Part shown: positions 27,892-64,000 of the stretch, in pieces
Position numbering within the stretch: the stretch's first letter is position 1
Layout: each line of letters starts with the position of its first letter
From: an uncultured Rikenellaceae bacterium
Lineage (GTDB): Bacteria > Bacteroidota > Bacteroidia > Bacteroidales > VadinHA17
Assembly: GCA_964472085.1 (NCBI GenBank)
Contig: CAYYIW010000013.1
Span: forward strand, 1,288 to 65,287
Direction: 5' to 3'
Length of the DNA: 64,000 nucleotides
Position numbers and translations under genes: made by a program
Notes under the pieces: generated by a model
Told to the model about the DNA's origin: nothing
Database searches by the model: none
What the model saw: the letters and a program-made list of their open reading frames with translations, nothing else

Positions 27892-30863
27892 GTTTTATAG
27901 AAGGCATACCTGATCTTGAGAAGTTTGATTTCAGCGATACATCTTTCGACCTGCTGATGCAGAAGAGAATACATCATGTGCTGATAATTTGCAGTAACTA
28001 TGATAATTATATGCTGGAAGAGGATGGCCGTATCGATGAGCAGATATTTAATGAATACGCATCCCTGAACCTTCGTTATCCCCCCACTTTTGTCCAGACT
28101 GATAATGATAAGGACGCCTTCAGAATCCTTGAGGAAGGCAATATTGATCTTGTTATTTCAATGCTGAGTATTAAGGGCGCCGATGTCTTTGCCCTGGCAA
28201 AAAGGATCAAGGCAAGATATGAACATATCCCTATAGTTGTGCTGACATATTTTACCAGGGAAGTATCGATACGGCTTGAAGGTGAGGATCTTAGTGCCAT
28301 TGATTATGTCTTTTGCTGGCTTGGTGATACATCTCTGATACTGGCCATCATTAAGCTGATAGAGGATAAGATGAATGCCGACTATGATATTGAGAATGTA
28401 GGTGTACAGGCTATTATCCTTGTGGAGAACTCAGTAAGGTACATATCTTCCTATCTCCCAAATTTATATAAGATTGTGCTTATGCAATCTCTTGATTTTC
28501 AGAGTGAAGCTCTGAATGAGCACCAAAGAATGCTCAAGATGAGAGGTAGGCCGAAGATACTTCTTGCCAGCAATTTCGATGATGCTCTGGCATTATACAG
28601 GAAATATAAGTACAATGTACTAGGAATAATATCGGATATAAGCTATAAACGCGATGGTGTACAGGATGAGAAAGCGGGTATCGAATTGTGTAAGGTAGTA
28701 TTTGCAGATGATGACCAGGTGCCGTTTCTCCTTCAATCATCCAGTACTGCACATAAAAAGGATGCTGAAGGTCTTGGTGCAGGATTTATCAATAAATATT
28801 CAAAGACATTATCACTGGAGCTTCGCAATTATATCATTCAATATCTTGCTTTCGGTCCTTTTGTATTCAGAAATCCCGATACCCTCGAACCCATAGCAAT
28901 AGCAACTGACCTCCAGAACCTGCAGCAGAAGATTCTTTCTGTACCTGATAATACACTTGAATACCATGCTACACATAACCACTTCTCGAAATGGCTGAAT
29001 GCCAGGGCTCTTTTCCCTGTGGCACAGATGTTCAAATATATCAGGAAAGAGGATTTTGCCACGATGGACGAGATGAGACGTTTTCTTTATGTTGCCATCT
29101 CAAGTTTCCGTTTTGGTAAGGGACGGGGAGTAATTGCAAAATTCGACAAGTCAAGTTTCGATGAATACCAGATTTTCTCAAGAATAGGAGAAGGCTCAAT
29201 CGGAGGCAAGGCAAGGGGATTGGCTTTTATAAACAGTATAATTAAAACCCACAGGTTATTCAATAAATTTACGGATGTCCTGATAACAATACCAAGAACA
29301 GTCGTATTGAGTACCGATATCTTCGACGAGTTCATGGAACAGAATAATCTCTATTCCGTAGCTTTGTCGGACCTGCCGGATGAGGAGATACTAAACAGGT
29401 TCCTTGTTGCTGACCTGCCAGGGTATATATACCAGGATTTTTATGCTTTCCTGGGTGTCTCCAGGAACTTTCCGATTGCGGTGCGATCTTCATCTAAACT
29501 GGAAGATTCACATTACCAGCCTTTTGCAGGTATTTATTCCACGTACATGATACCCAGGCTGTCTGATAATAAATTGATGGTCAGGGTGTTATCTGACGCC
29601 ATTAAAGAAGTTTATGCATCGGTTTATTATAAAGCCAGCAAAGCATATATGAATGCTACCTCCAATGCTCTTGATGAGGAAAAGATGGGCATTATTCTCC
29701 AGGAAGTATGTGGTAACAGGCATGGTGAGATTTATTACCCGACACTATCCGGGGTGGCCCGTTCAATAAATTATTACCCTATCGGAGCAGAAAAAGCTGA
29801 AGATGGAATAGTAAATATAGGTTTGGGACTGGGGAAACTGATTGTGGAAGGAGGTTTATCACTGAGATTTTCACCAAAATATCCGAAAAAGATACTTCAG
29901 CTCTCATCTCCTGAAACTGCGCTTCGTGACACGCAGAAAGAATTTTTTGCCCTCGACCTGAATATCGACAGCTTTGTCCCTTCAACGGATGATGGTGTTA
30001 ATATACTTAAACTGGATATCAAGGATATTAACAATGAGAATGCTATGAAATATGCAGCCTCGGTCTATGACAGGAACAATAACATTTTGCGCGACGGGAT
30101 ATCCTATCCCGGGAAAAAGATCATCACTTTTTCCAATATATTACAGCACAAGATATTTCCCCTGGCCGACATTGTAAGTACCCTTCTTGAGATAGGACAA
30201 CGCGAGATGAACAATCCTGTGGAGATTGAATTTGCGGCTAACCTGGAGACACCCGCAGGAGCTCCCAGGATATTCAGTTTTCTTCAGATCAGGCCTATTG
30301 TATATTCAGAAGAAACGCAAAGTATAAATCTTGATGCTGTTAAGGAACAGGACACTATTTGTTTCTCAGAATCTGCACTTGGTAACGGATTCTTTAAGGG
30401 GATTTGCGATCTGGTCTATATCAGGCCTGAATCATTCAGTGCTACGAATAATAAAACAGTTGCTGATGAAATAGATAAACTTAATACAAGGTTTAATAGG
30501 GAAGGACGCAGTTATATTCTTATCGGTCCCGGACGGTGGGGTTCTACCGATCCATGGCTGGGGATCCCGGTCAAATGGCCCCAGATATCAGGGGCGAGGA
30601 TAATAATTGAGTCGGGATTAAAGAATTACAGGATAGATCCCAGCCAGGGCACCCATTTCTTTCAGAACCTGACCTCTTTCAGGGTGGGATATTTTACAAT
30701 AAATCCTTATATACATGAGGGTTACTATGATGTGGGTTTCCTCGACAGGCAGAAGTGCATTTACGAAAATGAATTTATCAGGCATGTCCGCTTTAAGGAA
30801 CCTCTTGAAATAATGATTGACGGACGTTCACACAGGGGAGCGATCCTTAAACCAAAAATTTAG
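27888..30863 (+). CDS. Paralog of the preceding gene without the N-terminal sensor module: pseudo-receiver, receiver-like domain, PPDK_N-type ATP-grasp domain, unknown C-terminal domain
   Basis: 991 aa. Its ATG overlaps the upstream TGA (ATGA at 27888-27891). Motifs: VLIICSNYDNY, AIILVENS, GIISDISY (Asp codon at 28635), GGKARGLAF (29202-29228), VRSSSKLEDS (from 29481), EIEFAAN...FLQIRP and GPGRWGSTD (from 30525). Confidence 0.85.
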   Translation: MSFIEGIPDLEKFDFSDTSFDLLMQKRIHHVLIICSNYDNYMLEEDGRIDEQIFNEYASLNLRYPPTFVQTDNDKDAFRILEEGNIDLVISMLSIKGADVFALAKRIKARYEHIPIVVLTYFTREVSIRLEGEDLSAIDYVFCWLGDTSLILAIIKLIEDKMNADYDIENVGVQAIILVENSVRYISSYLPNLYKIVLMQSLDFQSEALNEHQRMLKMRGRPKILLASNFDDALALYRKYKYNVLGIISDISYKRDGVQDEKAGIELCKVVFADDDQVPFLLQSSSTAHKKDAEGLGAGFINKYSKTLSLELRNYIIQYLAFGPFVFRNPDTLEPIAIATDLQNLQQKILSVPDNTLEYHATHNHFSKWLNARALFPVAQMFKYIRKEDFATMDEMRRFLYVAISSFRFGKGRGVIAKFDKSSFDEYQIFSRIGEGSIGGKARGLAFINSIIKTHRLFNKFTDVLITIPRTVVLSTDIFDEFMEQNNLYSVALSDLPDEEILNRFLVADLPGYIYQDFYAFLGVSRNFPIAVRSSSKLEDSHYQPFAGIYSTYMIPRLSDNKLMVRVLSDAIKEVYASVYYKASKAYMNATSNALDEEKMGIILQEVCGNRHGEIYYPTLSGVARSINYYPIGAEKAEDGIVNIGLGLGKLIVEGGLSLRFSPKYPKKILQLSSPETALRDTQKEFFALDLNIDSFVPSTDDGVNILKLDIKDINNENAMKYAASVYDRNNNILRDGISYPGKKIITFSNILQHKIFPLADIVSTLLEIGQREMNNPVEIEFAANLETPAGAPRIFSFLQIRPIVYSEETQSINLDAVKEQDTICFSESALGNGFFKGICDLVYIRPESFSATNNKTVADEIDKLNTRFNREGRSYILIGPGRWGSTDPWLGIPVKWPQISGARIIIESGLKNYRIDPSQGTHFFQNLTSFRVGYFTINPYIHEGYYDVGFLDRQKCIYENEFIRHVRFKEPLEIMIDGRSHRGAILKPKI

Positions 30864-50435: not shown

Positions 50436-50944
50436 ACCTGCCTGATAAACTTGACATACTGATCATTACCCTCAGCGACAGGGCCTACAAAGGCGAGTAT
50501 AAGGACCTAAGCGGTCCCATGGTTAAGGAAAAGGCGGAGTCATTCCTGTCCGTATCCGGGCTTAAGGGTAAGATTGAAATAGTTGTCTTGCCTGATGATG
50601 CCGGCATGCTTGAGAATCTGCTTCATAGATCCGTACCGGACTATAATATAATTATTACAACAGGTGGCACCGGTATAGGTCCGAGAGACATAACAGTGGA
50701 AACTGTCAGGCCAATGCTTACTAAAGAAATACCGGGTATTATGGAGTTTATAAGGGTAAAGTACGGCATGGAGAAGCCCAATGCACTTCTTAGCAGGGGG
50801 GTAGCTGGTATAATAAACAATACACTTGTATATACAATTCCCGGTTCGGTGCGGGCTGCCGGAGAGTATATGGATGAAATATTAAAGACTGTTGATCATA
50901 CGATCCAGATGCTCTATGGCATCGATACCCATCAGAAACATTAG
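50432..50944 (+). CDS. MogA/MoaB-family molybdenum cofactor biosynthesis protein
   Basis: TTGGTGIGPRD motif. ATGA overlap with moaC. Confidence 0.85.
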   Translation: MNLPDKLDILIITLSDRAYKGEYKDLSGPMVKEKAESFLSVSGLKGKIEIVVLPDDAGMLENLLHRSVPDYNIIITTGGTGIGPRDITVETVRPMLTKEIPGIMEFIRVKYGMEKPNALLSRGVAGIINNTLVYTIPGSVRAAGEYMDEILKTVDHTIQMLYGIDTHQKH

Positions 50945-52290
50945 TTACTCATATTATTAAGGGTATTGGCAATAGCTGTACCTATTACCCTGTCGTAACG
51001 TTCAAGTGGATTTCTGTAATAGATAAGTACTATATAATCATTCTCTGTCTCATAATGGTTACCTTCAAATATTCCCGAAGTGCCATATTTTTCCCCTTTT
51101 TTCAGAAATTCATACTCATAGTTGTACCAGCCCTGTTTCAGTAACATGGTACATTCGTACTGTTTCCCGCTCTCGTTATATGTCATTATATTATTGCTAT
51201 TGTTTTCCCAGTCATTAAGAGCACCCGCCACATATACATTTCCATCCTTCAACATGTAAGCAGAGAGAAGGGTGAAATACACATTAACATAATCTGCCTC
51301 TATATCAGGTCTCTTACCTTCCTGGAATGCAATATAGTACTTGCCGTTAAAATCCTTCCAGTAAAAGTAAGGCTTGAACTCACGGTTCTCCGAGGGGTAC
51401 AGGTAAACATTATACCTGCCCATAGCATAATCGATGCTCTTCACATATTCACTCTGGTACCGGATACTTTTAATATCAAAATATCGGAATTCATTTCCGC
51501 CGGGGAATATATTTTTATCCGACAGGCTATTGTATTTTAACTCTCCGTTGCCATAAAAGTCAGGCTTAAGGTTTCTTTTATCGTTATCCCATCTGCCGTT
51601 TTGCAGGATGAAGGCATATATGTTCAAATACGGATTTGTTATATTGTAGCCTGTATAGTCGACTGTAAAATCCACCTGCTGGTGGGTATTGGTTTCATTT
51701 GTCATCATCGGCCGGTGGGCATCGATATTTATCCGCACAGCATCTTCGGTTATAATGAATCTCCGTGTTATAACGGGTTTTTCAGGTGTATCATAGGGGT
51801 ATACAACAAGGATGTAGTTACCTGAAAGGTTAAAAGATACCATATCGTTGGGAAAAGTAAGGCTGTAATGGAAATAGTTCACAGTAGTGTTAAAAGATGC
51901 CTGGTAGTCATCAACAGGATTGTCGGGAAATCCTGAAAGATATTCATTCTTAAAGATATCGGATTTGTTCCAGTCTTTATCGCAATGAATGAATGTGTAA
52001 TAATAAGACTGTGACTGGTTTGCAAGAAGATCAAATCCCAGGACAAGCTTATCATCACTGTGCAGTTTGATTATCGGGTATGATAAGTTCCATCCTTCTT
52101 TATACAGCTGAACAGTTTTTATTTTTTCAGAAAATATATGATCGGTACGGAGAAGAGAATCTTGTTTATTTTGTTGGGCATTCAGCGTCATTGAGCTAAT
52201 TATGACTATTATAACGCTAAAGGATGTACGTGTTAAAAATGTTAAAAAATAACCGGTTTGTCTAAACAGATCAGTTTCCTTTCTGAACAT
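50941..52290 (-). CDS. Secreted hypothetical protein, possibly DUF5103 / T9SS-plug-like family (assignment from memory, unverified)
   Basis: N-terminal signal-like segment. The C-terminal region resembles a glycogen/starch-binding-type beta-sandwich (VYVAGALNDWENN...YECTMLLKQGWYNYEYEF). Confidence 0.45.
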   Translation of the reverse strand: MFRKETDLFRQTGYFLTFLTRTSFSVIIVIISSMTLNAQQNKQDSLLRTDHIFSEKIKTVQLYKEGWNLSYPIIKLHSDDKLVLGFDLLANQSQSYYYTFIHCDKDWNKSDIFKNEYLSGFPDNPVDDYQASFNTTVNYFHYSLTFPNDMVSFNLSGNYILVVYPYDTPEKPVITRRFIITEDAVRINIDAHRPMMTNETNTHQQVDFTVDYTGYNITNPYLNIYAFILQNGRWDNDKRNLKPDFYGNGELKYNSLSDKNIFPGGNEFRYFDIKSIRYQSEYVKSIDYAMGRYNVYLYPSENREFKPYFYWKDFNGKYYIAFQEGKRPDIEADYVNVYFTLLSAYMLKDGNVYVAGALNDWENNSNNIMTYNESGKQYECTMLLKQGWYNYEYEFLKKGEKYGTSGIFEGNHYETENDYIVLIYYRNPLERYDRVIGTAIANTLNNMSN

Positions 52291-52460: not shown

Positions 52461-53813
52461 ATGTCATCATCAATTAGACTTAAAAGAGGACTTGACATCA
52501 AAATTGAAGGGAAAGCAGATAAGGTTCTGGTTCCTGAATATCATTCCGCTCTTTATGGGGTAAAGCCCGTGGATTTCCCTGGTCTGACACCTAAACTGGA
52601 AGTTAAACCCGGTGATTCAGTAATGGCAGGGACGCCTCTTTTTCATGATAAACTAAGGCCCGGGATAAAATTTGTATCTCCTGTAAGCGGCACGGTAGCC
52701 GGGGTTATCAGGGGCGACAGGCGTAAGTTGCTTGAAGTTACGGTGAAAAAGGAAGGAGATGATTTTGTGTCATTTGGTAAAGCAGATCCGGCAGATCTTT
52801 CTTCTGAAAAGATCAGTGAAGCTTTGCTTAATGCAGGACTATGGCCGGCAATACGACAGAGGCCGTATCATATAATAGCAAATCCTGCTGTCAGGCCTAA
52901 ATCAATTTTTATTTCTGGTTTTGACAGTTCTCCCCTGGCTCCTGATTACAGCTTCATTGCAGAGAATTCATCAGAGGCTTATTTCAGGAAAGGTCTGAAG
53001 GCTCTCGGGAAACTGACAGATGGAAAGATAAACCTTGTTCTTAATGGAAAGGAAGAGGCACCGGAAATACTGAAAGGAGCTGAAGGAGTTGAGATATCTT
53101 ATTTCTCAGGCCCTCATCCTTCCGGTAATATAGGTATCCATATACATCATCTTGATCCGGTTAATAAAGGTGAGATTGTCTGGTATGTCAACCTGCAGGA
53201 TGTATTTGCTATCGGAAGACTTTTTGAAGAAGGGGTATACAATCATGAGCGTATAGTTGCCCTTGCGGGCTCAGAGGTCATAAAAAAAGGTTACTACAGG
53301 GTGCGTTCAGGAGCTTCAGTGACTGAAATGGTCAATAATAATGTAAAGGAGGGGCATCTTCGTTACATAAGCGGGAATGTGCTTACAGGATCACGGATAG
53401 AGGCAGATGGGTATATAGGCTATTATGATTCGCTGGTAACTGTTATACCTGAAGGGGATTATTTTGAGTTTTTCGGATGGATCAAACCTGGATTAAATAA
53501 ATACAGTTTCTCGAAGACATTCCTTTCAAGCCTGATTCCGCGGAAGAGTTATCGTCTCGATACAAATTTCCATGGAGGTGAGAGAGCTTTTGTGATCACA
53601 GGCAAGTATGAGAAAGTGGTTCCGATGGATATTTATCCCATGCAACTGTTAAAAGCTATACTTGCGGAGGATATAGATATGATGGAGAACCTTGGAATAT
53701 ATGAGATAGCAGAAGAAGATTTTGCATTGTGTGATTTTATTTGTCCTTCCAAGATAGAGATACAGTCGATTGTAAGGAAGGGTCTTGACCTGATGGTCAG
53801 AGAGATGAGTTAA
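52461..53813 (+). CDS. nqrA: Na+-translocating NADH:quinone oxidoreductase subunit A
   Basis: 450 aa with the N-terminus IRLKRGLDIKIEGKA. First gene of the canonical nqrABCDEF order. Confidence 0.9.
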   Translation: MSSSIRLKRGLDIKIEGKADKVLVPEYHSALYGVKPVDFPGLTPKLEVKPGDSVMAGTPLFHDKLRPGIKFVSPVSGTVAGVIRGDRRKLLEVTVKKEGDDFVSFGKADPADLSSEKISEALLNAGLWPAIRQRPYHIIANPAVRPKSIFISGFDSSPLAPDYSFIAENSSEAYFRKGLKALGKLTDGKINLVLNGKEEAPEILKGAEGVEISYFSGPHPSGNIGIHIHHLDPVNKGEIVWYVNLQDVFAIGRLFEEGVYNHERIVALAGSEVIKKGYYRVRSGASVTEMVNNNVKEGHLRYISGNVLTGSRIEADGYIGYYDSLVTVIPEGDYFEFFGWIKPGLNKYSFSKTFLSSLIPRKSYRLDTNFHGGERAFVITGKYEKVVPMDIYPMQLLKAILAEDIDMMENLGIYEIAEEDFALCDFICPSKIEIQSIVRKGLDLMVREMS

Positions 53814-53834
53814 TAACCTGAGATAAAATATATA

Positions 53835-55010
53835 ATGGATTCTTTACGAAAGAAGATAGATAAGATCAAACCACATTTCACAGAAGGTGGTAAGTTTGGT
53901 AAATTACGTTCTGTATTTGAAGGATTTGAGTCTTTCCTTTATGTTCCGGACAAGGTAACGTTCAAGGGTTCTCATATACGCGACAGTATTGATATGAAGC
54001 GTACAATGATGGTAGTTATTATTGCCCTGCTCCCTGCCTTTCTGTTCGGATCATACAATGTGGGCCTGCAGTATTTCAGGTCAGTAGGGGGAGAGGCAAC
54101 AATCCTGCAGATGTTCTGGTTCGGGTTCCTGAAGATACTTCCGCTTGTCATTGTCAGCTATGTTGTCGGACTTGGTATCGAGTTTATATCGGCCCAGATC
54201 AGGGGACATGAGATCAATGAAGGATTTCTTGTTACCGGACTTCTTATTCCTCTTATCATGCCAGTTGATGTTCCCCTGTGGATGCTTGCACTGGCAACGG
54301 CTTTTGCTGTTATAATAGGGAAGGAGGTATTTGGAGGAACAGGGATGAATGTTTTTAACCCTGCTCTTATGGCCAGGGCATTTCTCTTTTTCAGCTATCC
54401 GGGCTGGATGACAGGTGATAAGGTATGGATAGCAGGACTTATGAAAGGAAAAGATGTAATTGACGGTTTTTCAGGGGCAACACCTCTGTCGTTATGTGCT
54501 GCCGGTAATACATCACACCTGCCTTCGTTCCTCCATATGTTTATAGGCACCATTCCCGGATCCGTAGGTGAGACTTCAACACTGGCCATACTCATAGGTG
54601 CTCTTATTCTGATAATGACAGGAGTTGGAAGCTGGAAGATAATAGTAAGTGTATTTGCCGGTGGTTTTGGTATGGGTTTGTTACTGAATGCTTTTGCCGT
54701 CAATCCTTTTATGGAGGTTCCCGCTTATTATCATTTTGTGATGGGAGGATTTGCTTTTGGTGCTGTCTTTATGGCCACTGACCCGGTATCAGGATCACAG
54801 ACTGAGAGAGGTAAATGGATCTACGGCTTTCTTATTGGTGTGCTGTCTGTACTCTTCCGGGTGGTAAACCCTGCATATCCCGAAGGCGTTATGCTGGCGA
54901 TACTGCTAATGAATGCATTTGCACCGCTGATAGACTACTTCGTTATCCAGTCGAGCATTAAAAAGAGGCTTAAACGTGCTAAACTCGCAACAAACAATAT
55001 TGTAAGATGA
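53835..55010 (+). CDS. nqrB: Na+-NQR subunit B
   Basis: Polytopic membrane protein with the GFSGATPL FMN-attachment region and FMATDPVS. Confidence 0.9.
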   Translation: MDSLRKKIDKIKPHFTEGGKFGKLRSVFEGFESFLYVPDKVTFKGSHIRDSIDMKRTMMVVIIALLPAFLFGSYNVGLQYFRSVGGEATILQMFWFGFLKILPLVIVSYVVGLGIEFISAQIRGHEINEGFLVTGLLIPLIMPVDVPLWMLALATAFAVIIGKEVFGGTGMNVFNPALMARAFLFFSYPGWMTGDKVWIAGLMKGKDVIDGFSGATPLSLCAAGNTSHLPSFLHMFIGTIPGSVGETSTLAILIGALILIMTGVGSWKIIVSVFAGGFGMGLLLNAFAVNPFMEVPAYYHFVMGGFAFGAVFMATDPVSGSQTERGKWIYGFLIGVLSVLFRVVNPAYPEGVMLAILLMNAFAPLIDYFVIQSSIKKRLKRAKLATNNIVR

Positions 55011-55708
55011 AACAGTTCAGTAACAGATATATATTCATTTTTTCCTCTATTATGGTGATTCTCGTGGCAACACTTCTTTCCCTTGCTGCCACAGTTCTGC
55101 AGCCTCTGCAGCAGAAGAACCTTGAAATTGAGAAGAAGAAAAGCATGCTTGAGTCTATCGGTGTGCCATCAACACGAAAGACGACAGAATCGTTATATGC
55201 CAGGCATATAACATCAAGTTTTGTTCTTAATGATAAAGGAGAAGAAGTTCCGGGTATTGATGCATTCAATGTTGATCTCAGTATTGAACAAAAGAAACCT
55301 CTTGACCAGCAATACTTTCCTGTTTTCAGGGCTACTGCCGATAACGGTGACAGTGTCGTTATACTGCCTGTCAGGGGAAAAGGCCTGTGGGGTCCGATAT
55401 GGGGATATATATCGCTGAAATCGGATATGAACACTATATACGGGGCGACTTTTGATCATCAGGGGGAGACTCCCGGACTGGGTGCTGAGATAAGCACTCC
55501 CCCATTTGAGAATATGTTCCCTGGCAAGAAGATTTATGAGGGTGATAAATTTGTCTCCATAGATGTGGTTAAAGGAGGGGCTAAACCTAATGATCCTCAT
55601 GGTGTAGATGCAATTTCAGGAGGGACCTTAACAAGTAAGGGCCTTCAGAATATGCTATATGATTGTCTCGGAAAATATAACACATGGCTTTTAAAAAACA
55701 GAAAATAG
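55007..55708 (+). CDS. nqrC: Na+-NQR subunit C
   Basis: Single N-terminal TM and the FMN-binding motif DAISGGTLTSKG. Confidence 0.9.
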   Translation: MKQFSNRYIFIFSSIMVILVATLLSLAATVLQPLQQKNLEIEKKKSMLESIGVPSTRKTTESLYARHITSSFVLNDKGEEVPGIDAFNVDLSIEQKKPLDQQYFPVFRATADNGDSVVILPVRGKGLWGPIWGYISLKSDMNTIYGATFDHQGETPGLGAEISTPPFENMFPGKKIYEGDKFVSIDVVKGGAKPNDPHGVDAISGGTLTSKGLQNMLYDCLGKYNTWLLKNRK

Positions 55709-55716
55709 TATAGTAT

Positions 55717-56370
55717 ATGAGTACCAAGGAAAAAGAGCCGTTATTCTCGGCAAAAAATTTAAGGATCTTTACCGCACCGCTGAGTAAGGAAAATCCTATT
55801 ACTGTACAGGTTCTGGGTATATGTTCTGCCCTGGCAATAACAGTAAAGCTTAAACCCGCCCTGGTTATGGCTTTGTCTGTAACCATCGTGGTTGCTGTAT
55901 CAAACGTTGTTGTTGCAGCGATGAGAAAACTTATTCCTGAAAGGATCAGGATAATTGTACAACTTGTGGTTATTGCTACCATGGTTATCCTGGTCGACCA
56001 GTCCCTGAAGGCATTCGCTTTCGATGTGAGCAAACAGCTGTCTGTCTTTGTCGGTCTTATAATCACCAACTGTATCATCATGGGCCGGCTTGAAGCATTT
56101 GCCATGGCAAATAAACCGTGGCCTTCATTTATCGACGGACTGGGAAATGGTGCCGGGTATGGTATAATATTGATAATTGTTGCCTTCTTCAGGGAACTGC
56201 TGGGATCAGGGACTGTCTATGGTTACCCCGTGATGACAAAACTTGGTTTCTATTCAACTGGTTATCATAATAACGGTCTCATGATCCTGCCTCCGATGGC
56301 ACTGATCACAGTTGGAATAATTATATGGGTACAACGTAGCAGGAATAAAAGTCTGATCGAGAAAAAATAG
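55717..56370 (+). CDS. nqrD: Na+-NQR subunit D
   Basis: Motifs QVLGICSALAIT, LIITNCIIMGRLEAFA and DGLGNGAGY (RnfE/NqrD family). Confidence 0.9.
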   Translation: MSTKEKEPLFSAKNLRIFTAPLSKENPITVQVLGICSALAITVKLKPALVMALSVTIVVAVSNVVVAAMRKLIPERIRIIVQLVVIATMVILVDQSLKAFAFDVSKQLSVFVGLIITNCIIMGRLEAFAMANKPWPSFIDGLGNGAGYGIILIIVAFFRELLGSGTVYGYPVMTKLGFYSTGYHNNGLMILPPMALITVGIIIWVQRSRNKSLIEKK

Positions 56371-56380
56371 ACAATAAATT

Positions 56381-56998
56381 ATGGAACATCTGTTAAATAT
56401 ATTTGTAAAGTCGATCTTTATCGACAACATGGTCTTTGCCTTTTTTCTGGGAATGTGCTCATTCCTGGCTGTGTCGAAGACTGTCAAGACATCTATCGGA
56501 CTTGGTATTGCAGTGGTATTTGTACTGTTGATCACCACCCCGGTTAACTTTCTTGTAGAACATTATATACTCAATAAAGGAGCGCTGTCGTGGCTTGGTA
56601 AAGGATTTGCCGATGTCGATCTCAGCTTTCTTACCTTCATGGTCTTTATAGCCGTTATTGCGGCTATGGTCCAGCTGGTTGAGATGATCGTTGAGAAGTT
56701 CAGCCAGTCATTATATAATTCACTTGGTATCTTTCTCCCGCTGATCGCTGTGAACTGCGCAATACTGGGAGCTTCACTCTTTATGCAGGAACGTGAATAC
56801 CAGACATTGGGTGAAGCTACTGTTTTTGGATTGGGCTCAGGAATAGGCTGGATGCTTGCAATAGTCAGTGTAGCTGCGATCCGTGAGAAACTCGCGTATA
56901 GTAATGTGCCTGATCCGCTTAAGGGACTTGGCATAACTTTCATTCTGACAGGCCTGATGGCAATTGCATTTATGGGATTTATGGGAATTAAACTATAA
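56381..56998 (+). CDS. nqrE: Na+-NQR subunit E
   Basis: RnfA/NqrE pattern: [12 protein letters not shown] and [10 protein letters not shown]. Confidence 0.9.
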
Positions 56999-57014
56999 AA
57001 GAAATTTTTTGATT

Positions 57015-58268
57015 ATGATCTTAGCTATTTCAACAGGCGGTACAATTTTATACAGCATTATTGTTTTCTTGTTAATAATATTAATGCTGGTCAGCGTTCT
57101 CATCATAGCCAAAGAGAAACTGGCCCCCAAAGGGGAAGTTAAAATGCAGATAAATGACCGTGAGTTTACAGTCTCTCCGGGATCGAATCTGCTCTCCACC
57201 CTTTCGGGTAATGATATATTTCTTCCTTCCGCCTGTGGTGGTGGCGGCACATGTGGTATGTGTAAATGCCAGGTAGTTGAGGGAGGTGGCTCTATTCTGC
57301 CTACCGAAACAGGCTTTTTTACCAGAAAGGAACAACAGAATCACTGGCGACTGGGTTGCCAGGTTAAGGTAAGGGAAAACATCCGTATAAAAGTCCCCGA
57401 AGCAGTGATGGGGATCAAAAAGTGGGAATGTGTGGTTATCTCCAACAGAAACGTGGCAACATTCATTAAGGAATTTGTGGTTAAGCTTCCGGAAGGGGAG
57501 GCCATGGATTTCACACCTGGTGGATATATCCAGATTGATGTTCCCAAATATGAAACAAGCTTCAGGGAATTCGATATAGAAGAGCAGTTCAGGAGCGACT
57601 GGGATAACTATAAGATGTGGGACCTGCGTGTTAAGAACAACGAAGAGACTTTCAGGGCTTATTCCATGGCTAACTATCCTGCTGAGAAAAACCTTATAAA
57701 GCTGAATATAAGAATTGCAACACCGCCATGGGATAATGTGAAAAAGCAGTTTAAGAATGTTCCTCCTGGTCTGTGTTCGTCATATATCTTCTCACGTAAA
57801 CCGGGCGATAAAGTAGAACTTTCAGGACCTTACGGGGAATTCCATATCAAAGATACCGATAATGAAATGGTCTATATAGGTGGAGGAGCAGGCATGGCAC
57901 CCCTGAGATCTCATATATTCCACCTGTTCCATACCCTTAAGACAAAAAGGAAAGTGTCATACTGGTATGGTGCAAGATCCTTAAGGGAAGTGTTTTATGA
58001 AGATGAGTTCAGATCCATCGAAAAAGACTTCCCCAACTTTACTTTTAACCTGGCTCTTTCAGAGCCTTTGCCTGAAGATAACTGGAAAGGGTATACAGGT
58101 TTCATTCACCAGGTGCTTTATGACAACTACCTGAGTAAACATGAAGAGCCGGAAGAAATTGAATATTATTTCTGTGGTCCGCCGCAAATGAATAATGCCG
58201 TGGTAAAAACTCTAGACGGGCTGGGAGTGCCAAATGAAAATATTTCGTTTGATGATTTTGGAATATGA
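57015..58268 (+). CDS. nqrF: Na+-NQR subunit F
   Basis: N-terminal TM, 2Fe-2S motif CGGGGTCGMCKC, RAYSMANY FAD site and GGGAGMAP NADH site. The ATG at 57015 is preferred over 56964. Confidence 0.9.
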   Translation: MILAISTGGTILYSIIVFLLIILMLVSVLIIAKEKLAPKGEVKMQINDREFTVSPGSNLLSTLSGNDIFLPSACGGGGTCGMCKCQVVEGGGSILPTETGFFTRKEQQNHWRLGCQVKVRENIRIKVPEAVMGIKKWECVVISNRNVATFIKEFVVKLPEGEAMDFTPGGYIQIDVPKYETSFREFDIEEQFRSDWDNYKMWDLRVKNNEETFRAYSMANYPAEKNLIKLNIRIATPPWDNVKKQFKNVPPGLCSSYIFSRKPGDKVELSGPYGEFHIKDTDNEMVYIGGGAGMAPLRSHIFHLFHTLKTKRKVSYWYGARSLREVFYEDEFRSIEKDFPNFTFNLALSEPLPEDNWKGYTGFIHQVLYDNYLSKHEEPEEIEYYFCGPPQMNNAVVKTLDGLGVPNENISFDDFGI

Positions 58269-59275
58269 TAAAAAAACTGTTACCGGTATCGCTGATTCTC
58301 TTAGCTCTTTTGATATCATGCAATGAGAAAAAAACTGAACTGGCCAGTTTCAAAGGGTTCACACAGGGGACAACATACAGTATTGTATACGAAAACAACA
58401 AGGATCTGGATGCACAGGACCTTAAAAATCAAGTAGAGAAAATACTGCACGATTTTGATATGTCCCTGTCGGTATATATTGACTCATCCATCATATCGAG
58501 GATAAACAGGAATGAGGATGCTGCTGTTGATACCTTCTTTACAGGTGTCTTTGATGAATCGGCCATGATATCAGCAATGACCAACGGTGCCTTTGATATA
58601 ACTGTTGGTCCCCTTGTTGATGCCTGGGGTTTCGGGCCCGACGGACGGAGGACTTTCAAGGCATCTGACCTCGACAGCCTTATGCAGCTGATTGGCATGT
58701 CGAAGGTGGCTCTGGTTAACGGTCATATAAAAAAAAGAGATCCCAGGATATCTCTTGATGTTAATGCTATCGCACAGGGCTATTCAGTAGATGTTGTATG
58801 CCGGTATTTTAACCACCTGGGCCTTAAGGATTACCTGGTAGAGATAGGCGGAGAAGTGAGGGCTGGAGGAACAAAGGACGGGGAGTTATGGAAAATAGGC
58901 ATTGACAAACCGGTAGACAATAATATGTTCCCTGGGGAGGATCTGCAGGCAGTAATAAAAATATCTGACAAAGCCCTGGCTACATCGGGTAATTACAGGA
59001 AGTTCTATATAGAGAACGGGATTAAATATTCTCACGAGATTGATCCCATTACCGGGTATCCTGCAAAAAATACTCTTCTTAGTGCAACCATTCTTGCTGA
59101 TAAGTGCGGCATCGCCGATGGACTGGCAACAGCCTGTATGGTCATGGGAACGCAAAAGTCAATTGATTTTATTAATGACCACCCTGAGTACAGTGCCTAT
59201 TTTGTCTATTCAGATGAGAAGGGAAATTTCAAAACATGGTTTTCCCCCGGCCTGAAGAAATACCTTGAAGAATAG
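58265..59275 (+). CDS. apbE: FAD:protein FMN transferase (flavin transferase for NqrB/NqrC), lipoprotein
   Basis: Lipobox LLALLISC and ApbE pattern (GTTYSIVY, DITVGPLVDAWGF, NAIAQGY, ALATSGNY). ATGA overlap with nqrF. Confidence 0.9.
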   Translation: MIKKLLPVSLILLALLISCNEKKTELASFKGFTQGTTYSIVYENNKDLDAQDLKNQVEKILHDFDMSLSVYIDSSIISRINRNEDAAVDTFFTGVFDESAMISAMTNGAFDITVGPLVDAWGFGPDGRRTFKASDLDSLMQLIGMSKVALVNGHIKKRDPRISLDVNAIAQGYSVDVVCRYFNHLGLKDYLVEIGGEVRAGGTKDGELWKIGIDKPVDNNMFPGEDLQAVIKISDKALATSGNYRKFYIENGIKYSHEIDPITGYPAKNTLLSATILADKCGIADGLATACMVMGTQKSIDFINDHPEYSAYFVYSDEKGNFKTWFSPGLKKYLEE

Positions 59276-59700: not shown

Positions 59701-59708
59701 TAATTTTG
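59701..59708 (+). promoter_or_regulatory. Candidate -7 box TAATTTTG upstream of the fused E1 gene
   Basis: Matches TAnnTTTG and ends 18 nt before the ATG at 59727, which implies a very short leader. Confidence 0.35.
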
Positions 59709-59726
59709 AATATTATTCAGATAATA

Positions 59727-62141
59727 ATGAAGCAGGAAACAAACGTATCAGACCTTAAAGCAGACAAGAAAGCAGTGCTGGCCGACTGGAGGCTGGCAAA
59801 CCTGAGCAGGGATCTAAGTGTAACCGGGAGGAGAGAAGTACTGACCGGGAAGGCCAAATTCGGTATATTTGGCGATGGCAAAGAGATAGTCCAGATAGCA
59901 ATGGCAAAGCAGTTCAGGGATGGAGACTGGCGATCGGGATATTACCGTGACCAGACCTGGATGATGGCAATGGGACTTTATGATTCATTGGAATTCTTTC
60001 ATCAGCTCTACGGTATCACAGACCGGAGTGTCCATCATGGAAGTGGGGGAAGGGTTTTTAATAATCACTTTTCAGTGCCAAATATAGATCCTGATGGAAC
60101 CTGGAGAGACCTTACCAAACAAAAGAACTCCTCAGCAGACATATCTCCGACCGCCGGACAGATGCCACGACTTCTGGGATTGGCATATGCGTCGAAACTG
60201 TTCCGTCAGAATAAAGACCTTCAGCAATATAAAACCCTGTCACTTAAGGGAAATGAAGTGGCATTCGGGGCGATAGGTGATGCCAGTACTTCAGAAGGCT
60301 ATTTCTGGGAAACAATAAATGCTGCCGGAGTCTTACAGGTCCCACTGGCAGTTTCTGTCTATGATGATGGTTACGGTATATCTGTACCGAAAAAATACCA
60401 GACTACCAAAGGCAGTATTTCTGAAATACTCAAGGGCTTTGAGGGAACAAAGAATAAACCTGGAATAAAGATATTCAGGGGGAAAGGCTGGGATTATCAA
60501 GGTCTGATAAAGATGTATGAAGAAGGAATAGCCGTTTGTCGTGAGACACATACCCCGGTTGTTTTTCATATCGAGGAAGTCACACAGCCACAGGGGCATT
60601 CAACATCCGGATCGCATGAGAGATACAAGAGTGAAGAAAGGCTAAAGTGGGAAGCTGAATTTGATCCTATCAGCAAGATGCGTGAATGGATCATTGAAAC
60701 AGGAATAGCTACTGCAGGTGAGCTTGATAAGCTGGCTGAGGAAGCCGAAGAAGAGACCAGGGCTTCAAGAAAGAAAAGCTGGGAAATGTTCCAGAGCCCT
60801 ATTAAGATAGAAAGGGATGCCCTGGTGAAGATTATAAGCGAACGTTCATGTTCCTGCATAGATCAGTATAAGGAAGATTCGGTGGATAAATTCACTGAAG
60901 ATCTTAAACAGGTTGTATCACCGATTCGAAAGGATAATTTTTCTACCGCACGTAAGATTCTGAGAAATGTATGCCAGAACTGTTTGAAGTCAGACAGCCT
61001 GAAGGATGATCTGAATGGTTGGCTGAAGAGAAATTTTGCGGATGCGGAAAAGAGTTATGATGCCTTCCTCTATAATGAAACCCCCGCCTCTGTAATGAAT
61101 GTCAAACCTGTTCCACCGGAATATTCGGAGAACTCACCGGAGGTCCCCGGGCGCCAGGTACTGCATGAAAATTTTAATGCACTATTTGAAAGGTATCCCA
61201 AGCTGGTGATCTTTGGCGAAGACACCGGTCATATCGGAGGTGTTAACCAGGCACTGGAAGGGTTGCAGAAAAAATTTGGTGAGTTGAGGATTACGGATAC
61301 CGGGATCAGGGAAGCAACAATTCTTGGCCAGGGAATAGGGCTTGCCTTGCGGGGATTACGTCCGATATCCGAGATACAGTATCTCGATTATCTTATGTAT
61401 GCTCTTCAGGTTCTGAGCGATGACCTGGCAACAACATATTACAGGACGGCAGGAAGAATGATCGCACCCCTGATCATCAGGACCCGCGGACACCGCCTGG
61501 AGGGTATGTGGCATTCAGGATCACCCATGAGTATGCTTATTAACTCTGTACGGGGAATATATGTTTGTTCTCCCAGGGATATGACACGGGCAGCGGGATT
61601 TTATAATACCCTGCTCGAAGGCAATGATCCTGCTATTGTAATTGAGCCCCTTAATGGCTACAGGCTTAAGGAAAGGCTACCAGATAATACCGGTGATTTT
61701 AAAATACCGCTTGGTATTCCTGAGATAATGAACAGTGGTACTGATATCACACTTGTTACTTACGGTTCTATAGTCAGGATAGCCATGGAGGCTGTAAAAC
61801 AGCTTGCTGCACATGATATTTCAGTGGAACTGATAGATGTGCAGACGCTTGTTCCCTTTGACAAGAACGGTGTAATACTGGAATCGGTGAAGAAGACCAA
61901 CAGGATTCTCTTCCTTGATGAGGATGTGCCCGGTGGCACAACGGCTTATATGATGCAGGAAGTAATGGAGACACAGGGGGCATGGAAATACCTCGACAGT
62001 TCACCAAAGACCCTTTCGGCAAAAGAACACAGGCCTGCCTATACCAGTGATGGTGATTATTTTTCCAAACCGAATGCCGAAGATATATTTGAGGCTGTTT
62101 ATGCAATTATGAATGAAGCTCAGCCTGCAAAATATGTCTAA
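59727..62141 (+). CDS. Fused alpha/beta E1 component of a 2-oxoacid (branched-chain-type) dehydrogenase, TPP-dependent
   Basis: The alpha-like half has GAIGDASTSEGYFWE. The beta/transketolase-like half has RITDTGIREATILGQGIGLALRGLRP and a C-terminal transketolase-C-like region. The ATG at 59727 is preferred over the TTG at 59706. Confidence 0.8.
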   Translation: MKQETNVSDLKADKKAVLADWRLANLSRDLSVTGRREVLTGKAKFGIFGDGKEIVQIAMAKQFRDGDWRSGYYRDQTWMMAMGLYDSLEFFHQLYGITDRSVHHGSGGRVFNNHFSVPNIDPDGTWRDLTKQKNSSADISPTAGQMPRLLGLAYASKLFRQNKDLQQYKTLSLKGNEVAFGAIGDASTSEGYFWETINAAGVLQVPLAVSVYDDGYGISVPKKYQTTKGSISEILKGFEGTKNKPGIKIFRGKGWDYQGLIKMYEEGIAVCRETHTPVVFHIEEVTQPQGHSTSGSHERYKSEERLKWEAEFDPISKMREWIIETGIATAGELDKLAEEAEEETRASRKKSWEMFQSPIKIERDALVKIISERSCSCIDQYKEDSVDKFTEDLKQVVSPIRKDNFSTARKILRNVCQNCLKSDSLKDDLNGWLKRNFADAEKSYDAFLYNETPASVMNVKPVPPEYSENSPEVPGRQVLHENFNALFERYPKLVIFGEDTGHIGGVNQALEGLQKKFGELRITDTGIREATILGQGIGLALRGLRPISEIQYLDYLMYALQVLSDDLATTYYRTAGRMIAPLIIRTRGHRLEGMWHSGSPMSMLINSVRGIYVCSPRDMTRAAGFYNTLLEGNDPAIVIEPLNGYRLKERLPDNTGDFKIPLGIPEIMNSGTDITLVTYGSIVRIAMEAVKQLAAHDISVELIDVQTLVPFDKNGVILESVKKTNRILFLDEDVPGGTTAYMMQEVMETQGAWKYLDSSPKTLSAKEHRPAYTSDGDYFSKPNAEDIFEAVYAIMNEAQPAKYV

Positions 62142-62228: not shown

Positions 62229-62259
62229 TCCCCCGGTCAGTTTTCCGGGGGAATTTTTT
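62229..62259 (+). terminator. Intrinsic terminator for the E1 gene
   Basis: Perfect 8-bp GC-rich stem TCCCCCGG/CCGGGGGA with an 8-nt loop, followed by A-T6. The stop codon of the convergent gene lies in the loop. Confidence 0.7.
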
Positions 62260-64000
62260 CATTCACACCGATAATCTTGAGTAGTTCCATGGCTGCTTCC
62301 CTTGGTCCGCTTGTTGCATATCCGGGTATGCCGAGCCTAGTCCGCATCTGTCCTACGAAGACCTCATGCTTGAAGAATGAGCGGAAATATTTTTCAGCTA
62401 TCTTATCATGAAGCTCCTTATATTCAGGAGGGCCAAAGATATTGGCAAAATATGAATGGACCAGTCCGCTGGATGTTGTCGTTCCCTTGCTCATAACAGC
62501 TCCCTCACTGAAGATGTCGAGAGCCCACTCCGGGGAATTGAATCTTTCTATTACAGGATGTTCGTCGTCGATCTCCTCGTAGTTATTGGCGTAAAGAATG
62601 TAATCGATCTTATGTCCGCTTGTAATAGTCTCAAAGCTTGTAACAGGCATAACAATACGGGCATTCACCTGGTTTGGGTTCATTATTATTGATCTGTCCA
62701 GGTGGCCGAATGCATATCCCGGCTGCAGGTCATCCAGGCGCAGGAATGCTCCTATCTCCGTGCCGAAACCAAGAGCATTTCCATTTTTGTCAAGTTCAAT
62801 AGATCCCATATCATCGGCTATGATGGTAAGGTCCCGTATATGTTTTTCTGCAAGTACCCTGAAAGCTTCCAGTGTCTCAGATTTCCCGGCCCCGGTATCC
62901 CCCATCATAAGAATAGTGGCCTCTTTGTCGCCCTGCAGGAGTATCTTGACCATAGCACCATGAAACGGCATATGCCCCGATTTTATTACTATGGAGTTAT
63001 GAAGCGTAAGGATCATCTTTTTAAGGTACCCGAAATACCCGAACTCAGGCCTGTTAGGTATGGCTCCGACAAAAATACCATTGTCATTATCCTCATAAAA
63101 GACTGTAGAATATGATGCAAGATCGTCCAGGGCTGTTCCGGGTACACCGTATATGAAGAGGGCATCCGGTTTCCTTCGTAGGTCCGAATCATCGGCAAGC
63201 TGGAACAGGTTACACATGGAGAAACCAAGCTCGAAGAAGTCCATGTGAAAATAGACCATTATGAACAGCTTACCTACCTTGGTCGGATAGCACAGCCATT
63301 CTTCAGGGTTTAGGTCAACAAGATCAATCGGATTCTGTGAGATCTTTTTGAAATGCCCCGTACGCTTGTTCATCGGTTGTTGTACGACCAGCGGAGGATA
63401 TATCAGCATCTGTCTAATAACAGGCAGTGCATTGAGTTTTTTATATTTTTCAGCTTTGTAGGCTACGTTCTTTGGTAATGAAATGACAGCCATCTCCGCA
63501 CCTGCCGGTATCTGCCTGTAAACCGTCGGATGTGTTCCTGTTATGTTTTCCTGGATATGGCGGTAAACCGTCCTTATAAGGTGCGTTAACTGCTCTATTG
63601 TCTCATTAAAGGTACGATAGGGCCTCTTATCAAGCCTGTCGCCCTGGGAATCATTTATAATAAACCTGTCGAAATGACGCCAGAAATCATACAGGTATTC
63701 CACAAAACTGTTAAGGTTTTCTGTATCCCGGAGAAATGTGACCGACCTGTCAAAAATATGAGGTACAAGATTACTCTCATATTTAACGAGTAATGTAAGG
63801 GTTTTTACGAGGTCATCAACAGAATCTCTGTTGTTATCACATTCGCTGAAAATACATAATAAAGGTGAGTTCTTTAATTTCAGCTTTTCCAGGCAAAGAT
63901 CAAGGACGATTCTGAACTTATCACTTGCCAGCAGTTCCTCCGGAGTCTCGCACATCCTCTCGCGGATGTTGAGAATAGCTTTGTTTCCAATAATACGTAA
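62237..64000 (-). CDS. Uncharacterised PEPCK/HprK-fold P-loop protein (possibly DUF4914-like), 5' end may lie outside window
   Basis: P-loop MMGDTGAGKSE (62876-62902) followed by IADDMGS...GFGTEIGAF, parallel to the kinase-1a/Asp/loop layout of HPr kinase and ATP-PEPCK. The frame stays open upstream of the first ATG (63955) to base 64000. Confidence 0.65.
   Translation of the reverse strand, partial: LRIIGNKAILNIRERMCETPEELLASDKFRIVLDLCLEKLKLKNSPLLCIFSECDNNRDSVDDLVKTLTLLVKYESNLVPHIFDRSVTFLRDTENLNSFVEYLYDFWRHFDRFIINDSQGDRLDKRPYRTFNETIEQLTHLIRTVYRHIQENITGTHPTVYRQIPAGAEMAVISLPKNVAYKAEKYKKLNALPVIRQMLIYPPLVVQQPMNKRTGHFKKISQNPIDLVDLNPEEWLCYPTKVGKLFIMVYFHMDFFELGFSMCNLFQLADDSDLRRKPDALFIYGVPGTALDDLASYSTVFYEDNDNGIFVGAIPNRPEFGYFGYLKKMILTLHNSIVIKSGHMPFHGAMVKILLQGDKEATILMMGDTGAGKSETLEAFRVLAEKHIRDLTIIADDMGSIELDKNGNALGFGTEIGAFLRLDDLQPGYAFGHLDRSIIMNPNQVNARIVMPVTSFETITSGHKIDYILYANNYEEIDDEHPVIERFNSPEWALDIFSEGAVMSKGTTTSSGLVHSYFANIFGPPEYKELHDKIAEKYFRSFFKHEVFVGQMRTRLGIPGYATSGPREAAMELLKIIGVNEKIPPEN

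Follow-up and report, generated by a model that had tools for sequence, protein, structure and literature searches.

A phosphoenolpyruvate carboxykinase-like protein family with an HprK-type P-loop and an N-terminal module of its own, seen in an uncultured Rikenellaceae bacterium

The last gene of the window, a 64,000-nucleotide stretch from an uncultured Rikenellaceae bacterium (contig CAYYIW010000013.1, positions 1,288 to 65,287 of the forward strand), lies on the minus strand at 62237-64000 and encodes a protein resembling phosphoenolpyruvate carboxykinase (PEPCK), here called the PEPCK-like protein. Translation gives 587 sense codons from 64000 down to 62240, closed by a TGA stop at 62237-62239 and open to the window edge. 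A first-pass annotation of the window had described exactly such an open reading frame (ORF), running to base 64000 upstream of its first ATG, and the frame is as described. The ORF listing gives 572 amino acids (aa; 62237..63955) from the first in-window ATG; the true start is not this ATG, at 63955, but one further upstream. P0001, the closest homologue (95% identical, 592 aa), starts MQRST followed by LRIIGNK..., therefore only five codons of the window gene (MQRST; 15 nt) lie beyond base 64000. The protein is thus essentially complete in the window, and its full length, judged from orthologues, is ~592 residues. Residue 1 below is the first in-window codon, equivalent to residue 6 of the full protein. 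All the motifs quoted by the first-pass annotation (HGAMVKILLQGDKEATILMMGDTGAGKSE, IADDMGS, GFGTEIGAF and LDD) are present in the translation, and the P-loop GDTGAGKSE maps exactly to the interval given for it, 62876-62902.

No Pfam family reaches its cut-off with the window protein, and the sub-threshold matches all fall at residues 321-406: DUF4914 (PF16260) scores 12.6 bits (cut-off 25.7), Hpr_kinase_C 13.5 (33.3), PEPCK_ATP (PF01293) 12.5 (26.5) and Zeta_toxin 14.0 (22.3). No NCBIfam cut-off is reached either; the best PEPCK model, NF006821, gives 16.5 bits (cut-off 369) and TIGR00679 gives 11.6 (240). The orthologue from Limosilactobacillus fermentum is also below the PF01293 cut-off (23.9 bits vs 26.5). 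Among 42 diverse family members (alignment A1), weak matches are obtained to PEPCK_ATP in 32, to DUF4914 in 21 and to Hpr_kinase_C in 12; the best PEPCK_ATP match among family members has E 2.3e-6 and the best DUF4914 match among the 42 has E 5.6e-5. Curated thresholds thus exclude the family from PEPCK_ATP, Hpr_kinase_C and DUF4914. The assignment to DUF4914, itself an uncharacterized family, that had been tentatively offered in the first-pass annotation is not upheld, and the profile comparison it had proposed yields weak matches of the window protein to all three families, each below its cut-off. The likeness to DUF4914, compared by profile only, is weak and covers the KK motif, the P-loop and the DD region (residues 328-405 against profile positions 209-287 of 612). 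In that profile the P-loop region comes ~120 residues earlier than in the PEPCK-like protein, so that the N-terminal architecture differs. What does place the protein in the PEP-carboxykinase/HprK superfamily (Pfam clan; SCOP c.91) is a shared P-loop fold together with steady weak matches to several clan members at the same site. BLAST and phmmer detect no similarity to ATP-PEPCK, and searches of PDB sequences (phmmer; family profile) return nothing beyond Walker-A noise (Rab GTPases, ABC ATPases and the like). It takes fold or profile-profile comparison to see the link to PEPCK.

An AlphaFold2 model built on A1 has a mean predicted local distance difference test score (pLDDT) of 90.1 and a predicted template modelling score (pTM) of 0.90. 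Foldseek comparison of this model with the PDB gives 122 matches with E <= 0.001, and the top 50 are PEPCKs without exception, ATP-type enzymes first. The best match is the Thermus ATP-PEPCK [2pc9_B, E 3.7e-16, template modelling (TM) scores 0.46/0.52, 444 columns], E. coli PEPCK (2pxz) is aligned over 507 columns, and several ATP-PEPCKs align over 420-507 columns with TM 0.45-0.52, covering the two-domain PEPCK fold. GTP-PEPCKs (PEPCK_GTP/PEPCK_C) are also matched significantly, at ~1e-13 (e.g. 2fah_A, E 7.7e-14), and rank below the ATP type; no sequence-level signal to them was detected. The structural search suggested by the first-pass annotation thus agrees with its view of a P-loop protein of the superfamily that unites PEPCK with HPr kinase/phosphorylase (HprK/P). 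ATP-PEPCK (PckA, EC 4.1.1.49, PF01293) is the best structural match over both lobes, and its overall size is similar.

The same fold bears on a different interpretation, that of a generic P-loop ATPase, either an ATPase of an ABC or energy-coupling factor (ECF) transporter or a defence or toxin NTPase. Several members are named 'energy-coupling factor transporter ATP-binding protein EcfA2' by the Joint Genome Institute (JGI), and there are sub-threshold matches to ABC_tran, AAA_29 and Zeta_toxin, limited to ~30 residues around Walker A. All three stay below cut-off, and the fold is that of PEPCK, not ABC, which contradicts the EcfA2 name. No conserved transporter genes occur nearby in our neighbourhood analysis (84 loci, ORF calling and clustering; ~55 loci outside the Bacteroidales), and in the Bacteroidales the gene sits in stable chromosomal synteny. 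PADLOC gives a single insignificant match (LeoC, E 0.021) and the phage collection none, and therefore this is not a defence or mobile gene. We regard the generic ATPase, already disfavoured, as very improbable.

Profile-profile alignment was used to place the PEPCK active site on the family. The reference alignment comprised eight ATP-PEPCKs, E. coli pck and annotated pckA genes from plasmid-collection records (Riemerella, Sulfurimonas, Staphylococcus, Rhizobium, Sphingobium, Bacillus and Halarchaeum). With hhalign, A1 aligns to these at a probability of 94.3% (E 1e-7, 328 columns), with residues 216-576 on E. coli PEPCK 101-467, a register with which single-sequence comparison agrees. The first-pass annotation had confined the likeness to the C-terminal half; it in fact begins at about residue 216 and includes the Y-x-G-x-x-K-K and N-x-R motifs. 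Y322, G324, K327, K328, H347, T/S369, K373, S374, D396, D397, E415, G417, R421, N446, R448 and T554 pair with E. coli PEPCK Y207, G209, K212, K213, H232, S250, K254, T255, D268, D269, E282, G284, K288, N331, R333 and T441 respectively, K288 being represented by Arg. These positions are kept in 36-42 of the 42 diverse members. The catalytic and metal residues K212, K213, H232, K254, T255, D268, D269 and R333 of PEPCK are all paired and conserved, and P-loop residues G367, G372 and K373 are invariant (42/42). Around K327, the motif YFGYLKKMILTLHN retains Y322 in 40, K327 in 41, K328 in 36 and N335 in all 42 members. In E. coli PEPCK, Mn2+ is bound by K213, H232 and D269 and ATP-Mg2+ by K254 and T255; R333, K288 and K212 touch the transferred phosphoryl group and the substrate, and Y207 lines the CO2/substrate site. 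As all the phosphoryl-transfer and metal residues are paired and conserved, the phosphoryl-transfer machinery is intact. Three further PEPCK positions, L249, T256 and E210, are replaced in the family by Asp, Glu and Tyr. The intervals of the gene and its motifs are listed in Table 1.

Table 1. Features of the PEPCK-like gene and its downstream flank (window coordinates; arrows denote residues paired by hhalign)
Feature	Coordinates	Strand	Basis
PEPCK-like protein coding sequence, 587 codons + TGA; true ATG 15 nt past base 64000	62237..64000	-	orthologues, dN/dS
Family-specific N-terminal module, residues 1-216	63353..64000	-	model, unaligned to PEPCK, conservation
Second half of PEPCK N-terminal lobe (E. 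coli ~101-205), residues 217-316, incl. NLFEL and KPD motifs	63053..63352	-	hhalign
PEPCK-like nucleotide-binding catalytic domain, residues 317-587	62240..63052	-	Foldseek, hhalign
YFGYLKKMILTLHN: Y322, G324, K327, K328 <-> PEPCK substrate/CO2 and Mn2+ site	62996..63037	-	hhalign
PFHGA: H347 <-> PEPCK H232 (Mn2+ ligand) and conserved HprK/P histidine; H in 36/42	62954..62968	-	hhalign
P-loop GDTGAGKSE, HprK/P-like wording (GDSGxGKSE)	62876..62902	-	hhalign, conservation
IADDMG: D396/D397 <-> PEPCK D268/D269 and HprK/P DD pair; 39-40/42	62804..62821	-	hhalign
GTEIGAFLRLDD: E415, G417, R421 <-> PEPCK E282, G284, K288; D423, D424 conserved, family-specific	62729..62764	-	hhalign
NARIVMP: N446, R448 <-> PEPCK N331, R333; R in 38/42	62645..62665	-	hhalign
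KGTT...YFANIFGP block <-> PEPCK AGTE...FSACFGAPF block	62429..62488	-	hhalign, alignment
GC-rich 8-bp hairpin (TCCCCCGG...CCGGGGGA), TGA stop of the PEPCK-like gene in loop; between it and the convergent E1-dehydrogenase gene	62229..62252	.	sequence

The N-terminal module separates the family from PEPCK. In the model it is built from a β-hairpin, a helical bundle (~residues 20-155) and β elements, and its conserved residues are R112, which is invariant, W107, Y146-R147, R162, G167 and N211-x-R213. When residues 1-316 are modelled alone (pLDDT 86.6), Foldseek finds no PDB match with E <= 0.001, and PEPCK appears only at E 0.4-0.8 with TM <= 0.2. The ~330 N-terminal residues that the first-pass annotation had found unlike anything it recognized are thus without a structural match on their own, and the truly family-specific part is shorter, ~216 residues. 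This module replaces the first ~100 residues of PEPCK; residues 1-100, including R65 of the TGRSPKDK motif, have no aligned counterpart by hhalign, and no such motif occurs in A1. R65 is a substrate-binding residue in PEPCK. The module, with four conserved arginines (R112, R147, R162 and R213), sits where PEPCK has the R65 segment.

It could be argued that the protein is simply a true PEP carboxykinase isozyme, diverged in sequence, which catalyses PEP + CO2 + ADP <-> oxaloacetate + ATP. Over both lobes no structure matches better than PEPCK, the aligned region keeps all the contacts to PEP/oxaloacetate, CO2 and Mn2+ (Y207, K212, K213, H232, S250, D269 and R333), and NCBI and UniRef give the PEPCK name to the Limosilactobacillus proteins and to several from metagenome-assembled genomes (MAGs). 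That name, as carried by many members, is without support from any curated model or experiment that we found. The scores against PF01293 and NCBIfam given above, including that of the L. fermentum protein, are all below cut-off, the N-terminal ~100 residues with R65 are unaligned, the N-terminal region alone matches no PEPCK structure, and the nucleotide-base and ribose contacts are not kept. Genomic neighbours speak on both sides. In two Omnitrophota loci (L065, 5672-9740; L070, 5709-9740) a tight same-strand string consists of pckA, a CxxCxxCC gene (PF03692) and the PEPCK-like gene. The pckA, two genes upstream, encodes a canonical ATP-PEPCK 58% identical to E. coli PckA. At L064 (6667-11125) argG and argH flank the PEPCK-like gene, the end of which shares 4 nt with argH, and at L059 (3176-8123) argG and argH come after it with one small ORF between. 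These occasional oxaloacetate- or aspartate-using neighbours suit a PEPCK, and the pckA and argG/argH adjacencies hint faintly at the oxaloacetate/aspartate node (two loci each, probably one lineage each); they serve as leads rather than as evidence. The presence of a canonical pckA on the same strand, however, indicates that the PEPCK-like protein is not simply the PEPCK of the organism and argues against simple replacement. We think a diverged PEPCK isozyme unlikely. At a further locus (L056) the CxxCxxCC gene adjoins the PEPCK-like gene without pckA, and no canonical pckA is found within the 64-kb window.

The P-loop of the family, G-D-S-G-A-G-K-S-E-T-L-E-A, has the wording of HprK/P (PF07475, TIGR00679), unlike that of PEPCK, G-L-S-G-T-G-K-T-T-L. 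HprK/P, of the same superfamily, has in common with the family the P-loop G-D-S-G-x-G-K-S-E-T-x-L-E, the preceding His and the following DD pair. The PEPCK-like protein might on this basis be a protein kinase/phosphorylase that phosphorylates Ser/Thr of a metabolic protein with ATP or pyrophosphate (PPi) as donor, removes the group by phosphorolysis and docks its target on the helical N-module. Its P-loop, GDSGAGKSETLEA, matches that of HprK/P (GDSGxGKSETALEL), and the ribose- and base-gripping elements of PEPCK are shortened, as they are in HprK/P. An alignment of three HprK/P structure sequences (PDB 1ko7, 1jb1 and 1knx, retrieved with a B. subtilis-like query, HprK-like at E 8e-125, which was left out) is matched by hhalign at 79.8% probability (E 1.5e-5) over the His, P-loop and DD core, and there are the weak Hpr_kinase_C matches in 12 of 42 members. 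The alignment, however, stops after the DD pair and covers 48 columns, against 328 with PEPCK, and no HprK structure is among the top 50 Foldseek matches. The Hpr_kinase_N domain and the E-I-R-G-L-G-I signature of HprK/P are absent, the PEPCK-like protein reading GTEIGAFxRLDD at that place, and the TIGR00679 score is far below its cut-off. The protein is about twice the length of HprK/P and retains PEPCK-specific motifs not found there, Y-x-G-x-x-K-K and N-x-R, which serve a small-molecule substrate and Mn2+; no HPr gene is linked and no partner gene is conserved nearby. We therefore consider an HprK-like protein kinase quite improbable. The first-pass annotation had drawn the parallel to HprK/P and PEPCK alike. 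For the P-loop wording this holds; with a likeness to PEPCK that extends from ~216 and includes Y-x-G-x-x-K-K and N-x-R, the protein as a whole is clearly closer to PEPCK. The family is a separate branch of the PEPCK/HprK superfamily, with an HprK-like P-loop and a new N-terminal module.

From these comparisons the PEPCK-like protein is predicted, and in our judgement probably is, an active Mn/Mg-dependent phosphotransferase of the PEPCK superfamily acting on what is probably a small anionic substrate. According to the model and the profile alignment, residues ~216-587 make up a two-lobed PEPCK catalytic core. All the nucleotide-phosphate and Mg2+ residues of ATP-PEPCK have conserved counterparts: P-loop K373 and S374, a second metal site of K328, H347 and D397, and K327, R421, R448 and D396 as stabilizers of the transferred phosphoryl. 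The protein would be a soluble enzyme of ~592 residues, catalytically active and dependent on divalent metal, transferring phosphoryl between a nucleotide, or possibly pyrophosphate, and a substrate. This substrate would sit in a cleft formed by the P-loop domain and the arginine-rich N-terminal module. Retention of Y-x-G-x-x-K-K and N-x-R, motifs specific to PEPCK and missing from HprK/P, points most probably to a small anionic metabolite, for example a carboxylate or phospho-carboxylate from central C3/C4 metabolism, which could be something other than PEP or oxaloacetate.

Several observations count against this assignment as an active phosphotransferase. The adenosine-binding residues of PEPCK (E297, R449 and T455) are not retained as a set: E297/P298, like L310-E311-N312, fall in a deletion of the family and T455 pairs with a conserved Ala. 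With the ribose and base contacts of PEPCK not preserved, the phosphoryl donor (ATP, another nucleoside triphosphate or PPi) is uncertain. Three divergent members of A1 (P0184, P0188 and P0200) have lost H347, the P-loop Ser (S374) or a DD residue (e.g. GKHET, GKADV, LPVNGYL) and may be inactive paralogues or pseudo-enzymes. Of the ~55 loci outside the Bacteroidales, at most 6 share any one neighbour cluster, and a set of 92 adjacent same-strand genes contains no Pfam family more than three times; with no neighbour conserved there, the context is silent on the substrate. Finally, no characterization of any family member was found in the literature on DUF4914, PEPCK-like proteins, Lactobacillus pckA or Lreu_1313. 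The protein is in this sense uncharacterized, as the first-pass annotation had it, with the qualification that many members already bear the name phosphoenolpyruvate carboxykinase in NCBI and UniRef.

A bolder proposal, to which we give somewhat less than an even chance, is that the family constitutes a third functional branch of the PEPCK/HprK superfamily, combining a PEPCK-type core, an HprK-type P-loop and a new substrate module to catalyse an undescribed reaction, perhaps with PPi or a non-adenine donor and at the PEP-oxaloacetate-aspartate node of anaerobes. So far nothing found sets the chemistry of the family apart from known phosphoryl transfer. The PEPCK-like family, widespread and strongly constrained, sits between PEPCK and HprK/P, two textbook enzymes that serve central carbon metabolism and its regulation. 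Should the PEPCK label be wrong, genome-scale lactobacillus models and MAG-based reconstructions of anaerobic communities hold a false anaplerotic or gluconeogenic step and miss the real reaction; if the third-branch proposal is true, the 'PEPCK' of Limosilactobacillus and of many MAGs is mis-annotated and the metabolic models that depend on it are wrong. Two cultured species open to genetics, Limosilactobacillus reuteri and L. fermentum, have an orthologue in which the function can be tested directly. The sequences themselves are already in databases, often as PEPCK.

A word-indexed search of a set of 5.8 billion proteins returned >6,100 homologues; the 120 best reach 80-95% identity, are 572-598 aa long and lack a precomputed Pfam domain. 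Exhaustive search of 50%-identity representatives gave 566 clusters at E <= 1e-3, 153 of them at E <= 1e-30, in which full-length members of 550-600 aa reach down to ~27% identity. When each GTDB species is represented by a single genome, relatives are encoded in at least 554 species, spread over more than a dozen phyla and mostly MAGs of anaerobes. The best 80 of these species are MAGs throughout: ~25 are Bacteroidales or Rikenellaceae (71-84% identity) and the rest (53-61%) belong to other phyla, including Planctomycetales, Omnitrophota, Anaerolineae/Chloroflexota, Spirochaetota, Syntrophorhabdus, Smithella, Syntrophus, Sporomusaceae/Pelosinus, KSB1, Neomarinimicrobiota, Riflebacteria, Delongbacteria and others. 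Further clusters come from Bipolaricaulota and from Falkowbacteria of the candidate phyla radiation. The phyletic survey and the inspection of co-occurring genes suggested in the first-pass annotation therefore revealed a broad family, with no neighbour conserved outside the Bacteroidales. Compared with its orthologue at L001 (DNA 93.5% identical), the window gene has a ratio of non-synonymous to synonymous substitution rates (dN/dS) of 0.073, and it is under strong purifying selection. The homologues, the clusters, the dN/dS value and the invariant P-loop residues establish the gene as real, far beyond chance.

Among cultured bacteria, Limosilactobacillus carries the gene. In L. fermentum DR9 the protein (AYP99509.1, 569 aa) has 38% identity over 485 residues and the annotation 'phosphoenolpyruvate carboxykinase', and identically named relatives are found throughout the genus (L. 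vaginalis, L. panis, L. antri, L. caccae, L. fastidiosus and others). The one family thus goes by three public names, EcfA2 (JGI), phosphoenolpyruvate carboxykinase (NCBI, UniRef) and 'hypothetical protein'. In a shotgun proteome of L. reuteri (PMC5218481), Lreu_1313 is entered as 'phosphoenolpyruvate carboxykinase' with a mass of 64.8 kDa. This mass suits the PEPCK-like family (564-569 aa) better than canonical PckA (~540 aa), and Lreu_1313 may therefore be a member. The sole match to the PEPCK-like protein in the plasmid collection is on the 252-kb 'plasmid unnamed2' of L. fermentum DR9 (CP033373.1, L096). Around this homologue are housekeeping-type genes (Mn-dependent pyrophosphatase, msrB, cytosine deaminase and rarA), and the record looks like chromosomal DNA; several further records filed there as 'plasmid' are chromosomes of Mb size. 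An apparent fusion with SAICAR synthetase (P0182) was rejected as a frameshifted ORF on a high-GC contig, and other longer members in the representative search carry no extra Pfam domain.

In the window the PEPCK-like gene is convergent with a gene at 59706-62141 (+) for a fused E1α/E1β 2-oxoacid dehydrogenase, a single polypeptide of 811 aa with E1 alpha (E1_dh) and E1 beta (Transket_pyr + Transketolase_C) parts. Just upstream of the E1 fusion gene is a complete Na+-NQR set, nqrA-F followed by the flavin transferase gene apbE (52461-59275, +), and on the other side of the nqr set is a T9SS_plug-type gene (50941-52290, -), identified by synteny with L001. In ~24-25 Bacteroidales loci the order is PNP_UDP-holA, DUF179 on the opposite strand, the PEPCK-like gene and the convergent E1 gene. 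The conserved neighbours (DUF179, holA, fused E1 dehydrogenase and ApbE/nqr) are Bacteroidales synteny only and none is co-directional, so that the PEPCK-like gene is monocistronic; this is the case in close and in distant relatives. One distant member, on a 1.9-Mb contig, lies among tRNA synthetase, Tex and YdjC genes. Two PPDK_N (ATP-grasp) proteins are encoded at 24433-30863 (+), one of 1152 aa with a DUF5752 match and one of 991 aa with an N-terminal response-regulator receiver domain; neither showed the remaining architecture of pyruvate phosphate dikinase (PPDK) or PEP synthase in a general domain scan. The first-pass annotation saw no link between this pair and the PEPCK-like gene, and rightly so: the pair lies at a distance of 31 kb and is not found within +/-10 kb of close orthologues.

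With a divergent upstream neighbour and a convergent downstream one, the PEPCK-like gene is likely to be expressed on its own. On the contig of P0001 a 108-bp AT-rich spacer separates it from the divergently transcribed DUF179 gene, and TATTTTTG occurs in this spacer ~20 nt upstream of the ATG. The -7 promoter element of Bacteroidetes has the consensus TAnnTTTG, which TATTTTTG would fit as a candidate. At the other end of the gene, the hairpin listed in Table 1 is followed by a T-run on the plus strand and its minus-strand flank is T-rich too, and it may be a terminator shared by both convergent genes.

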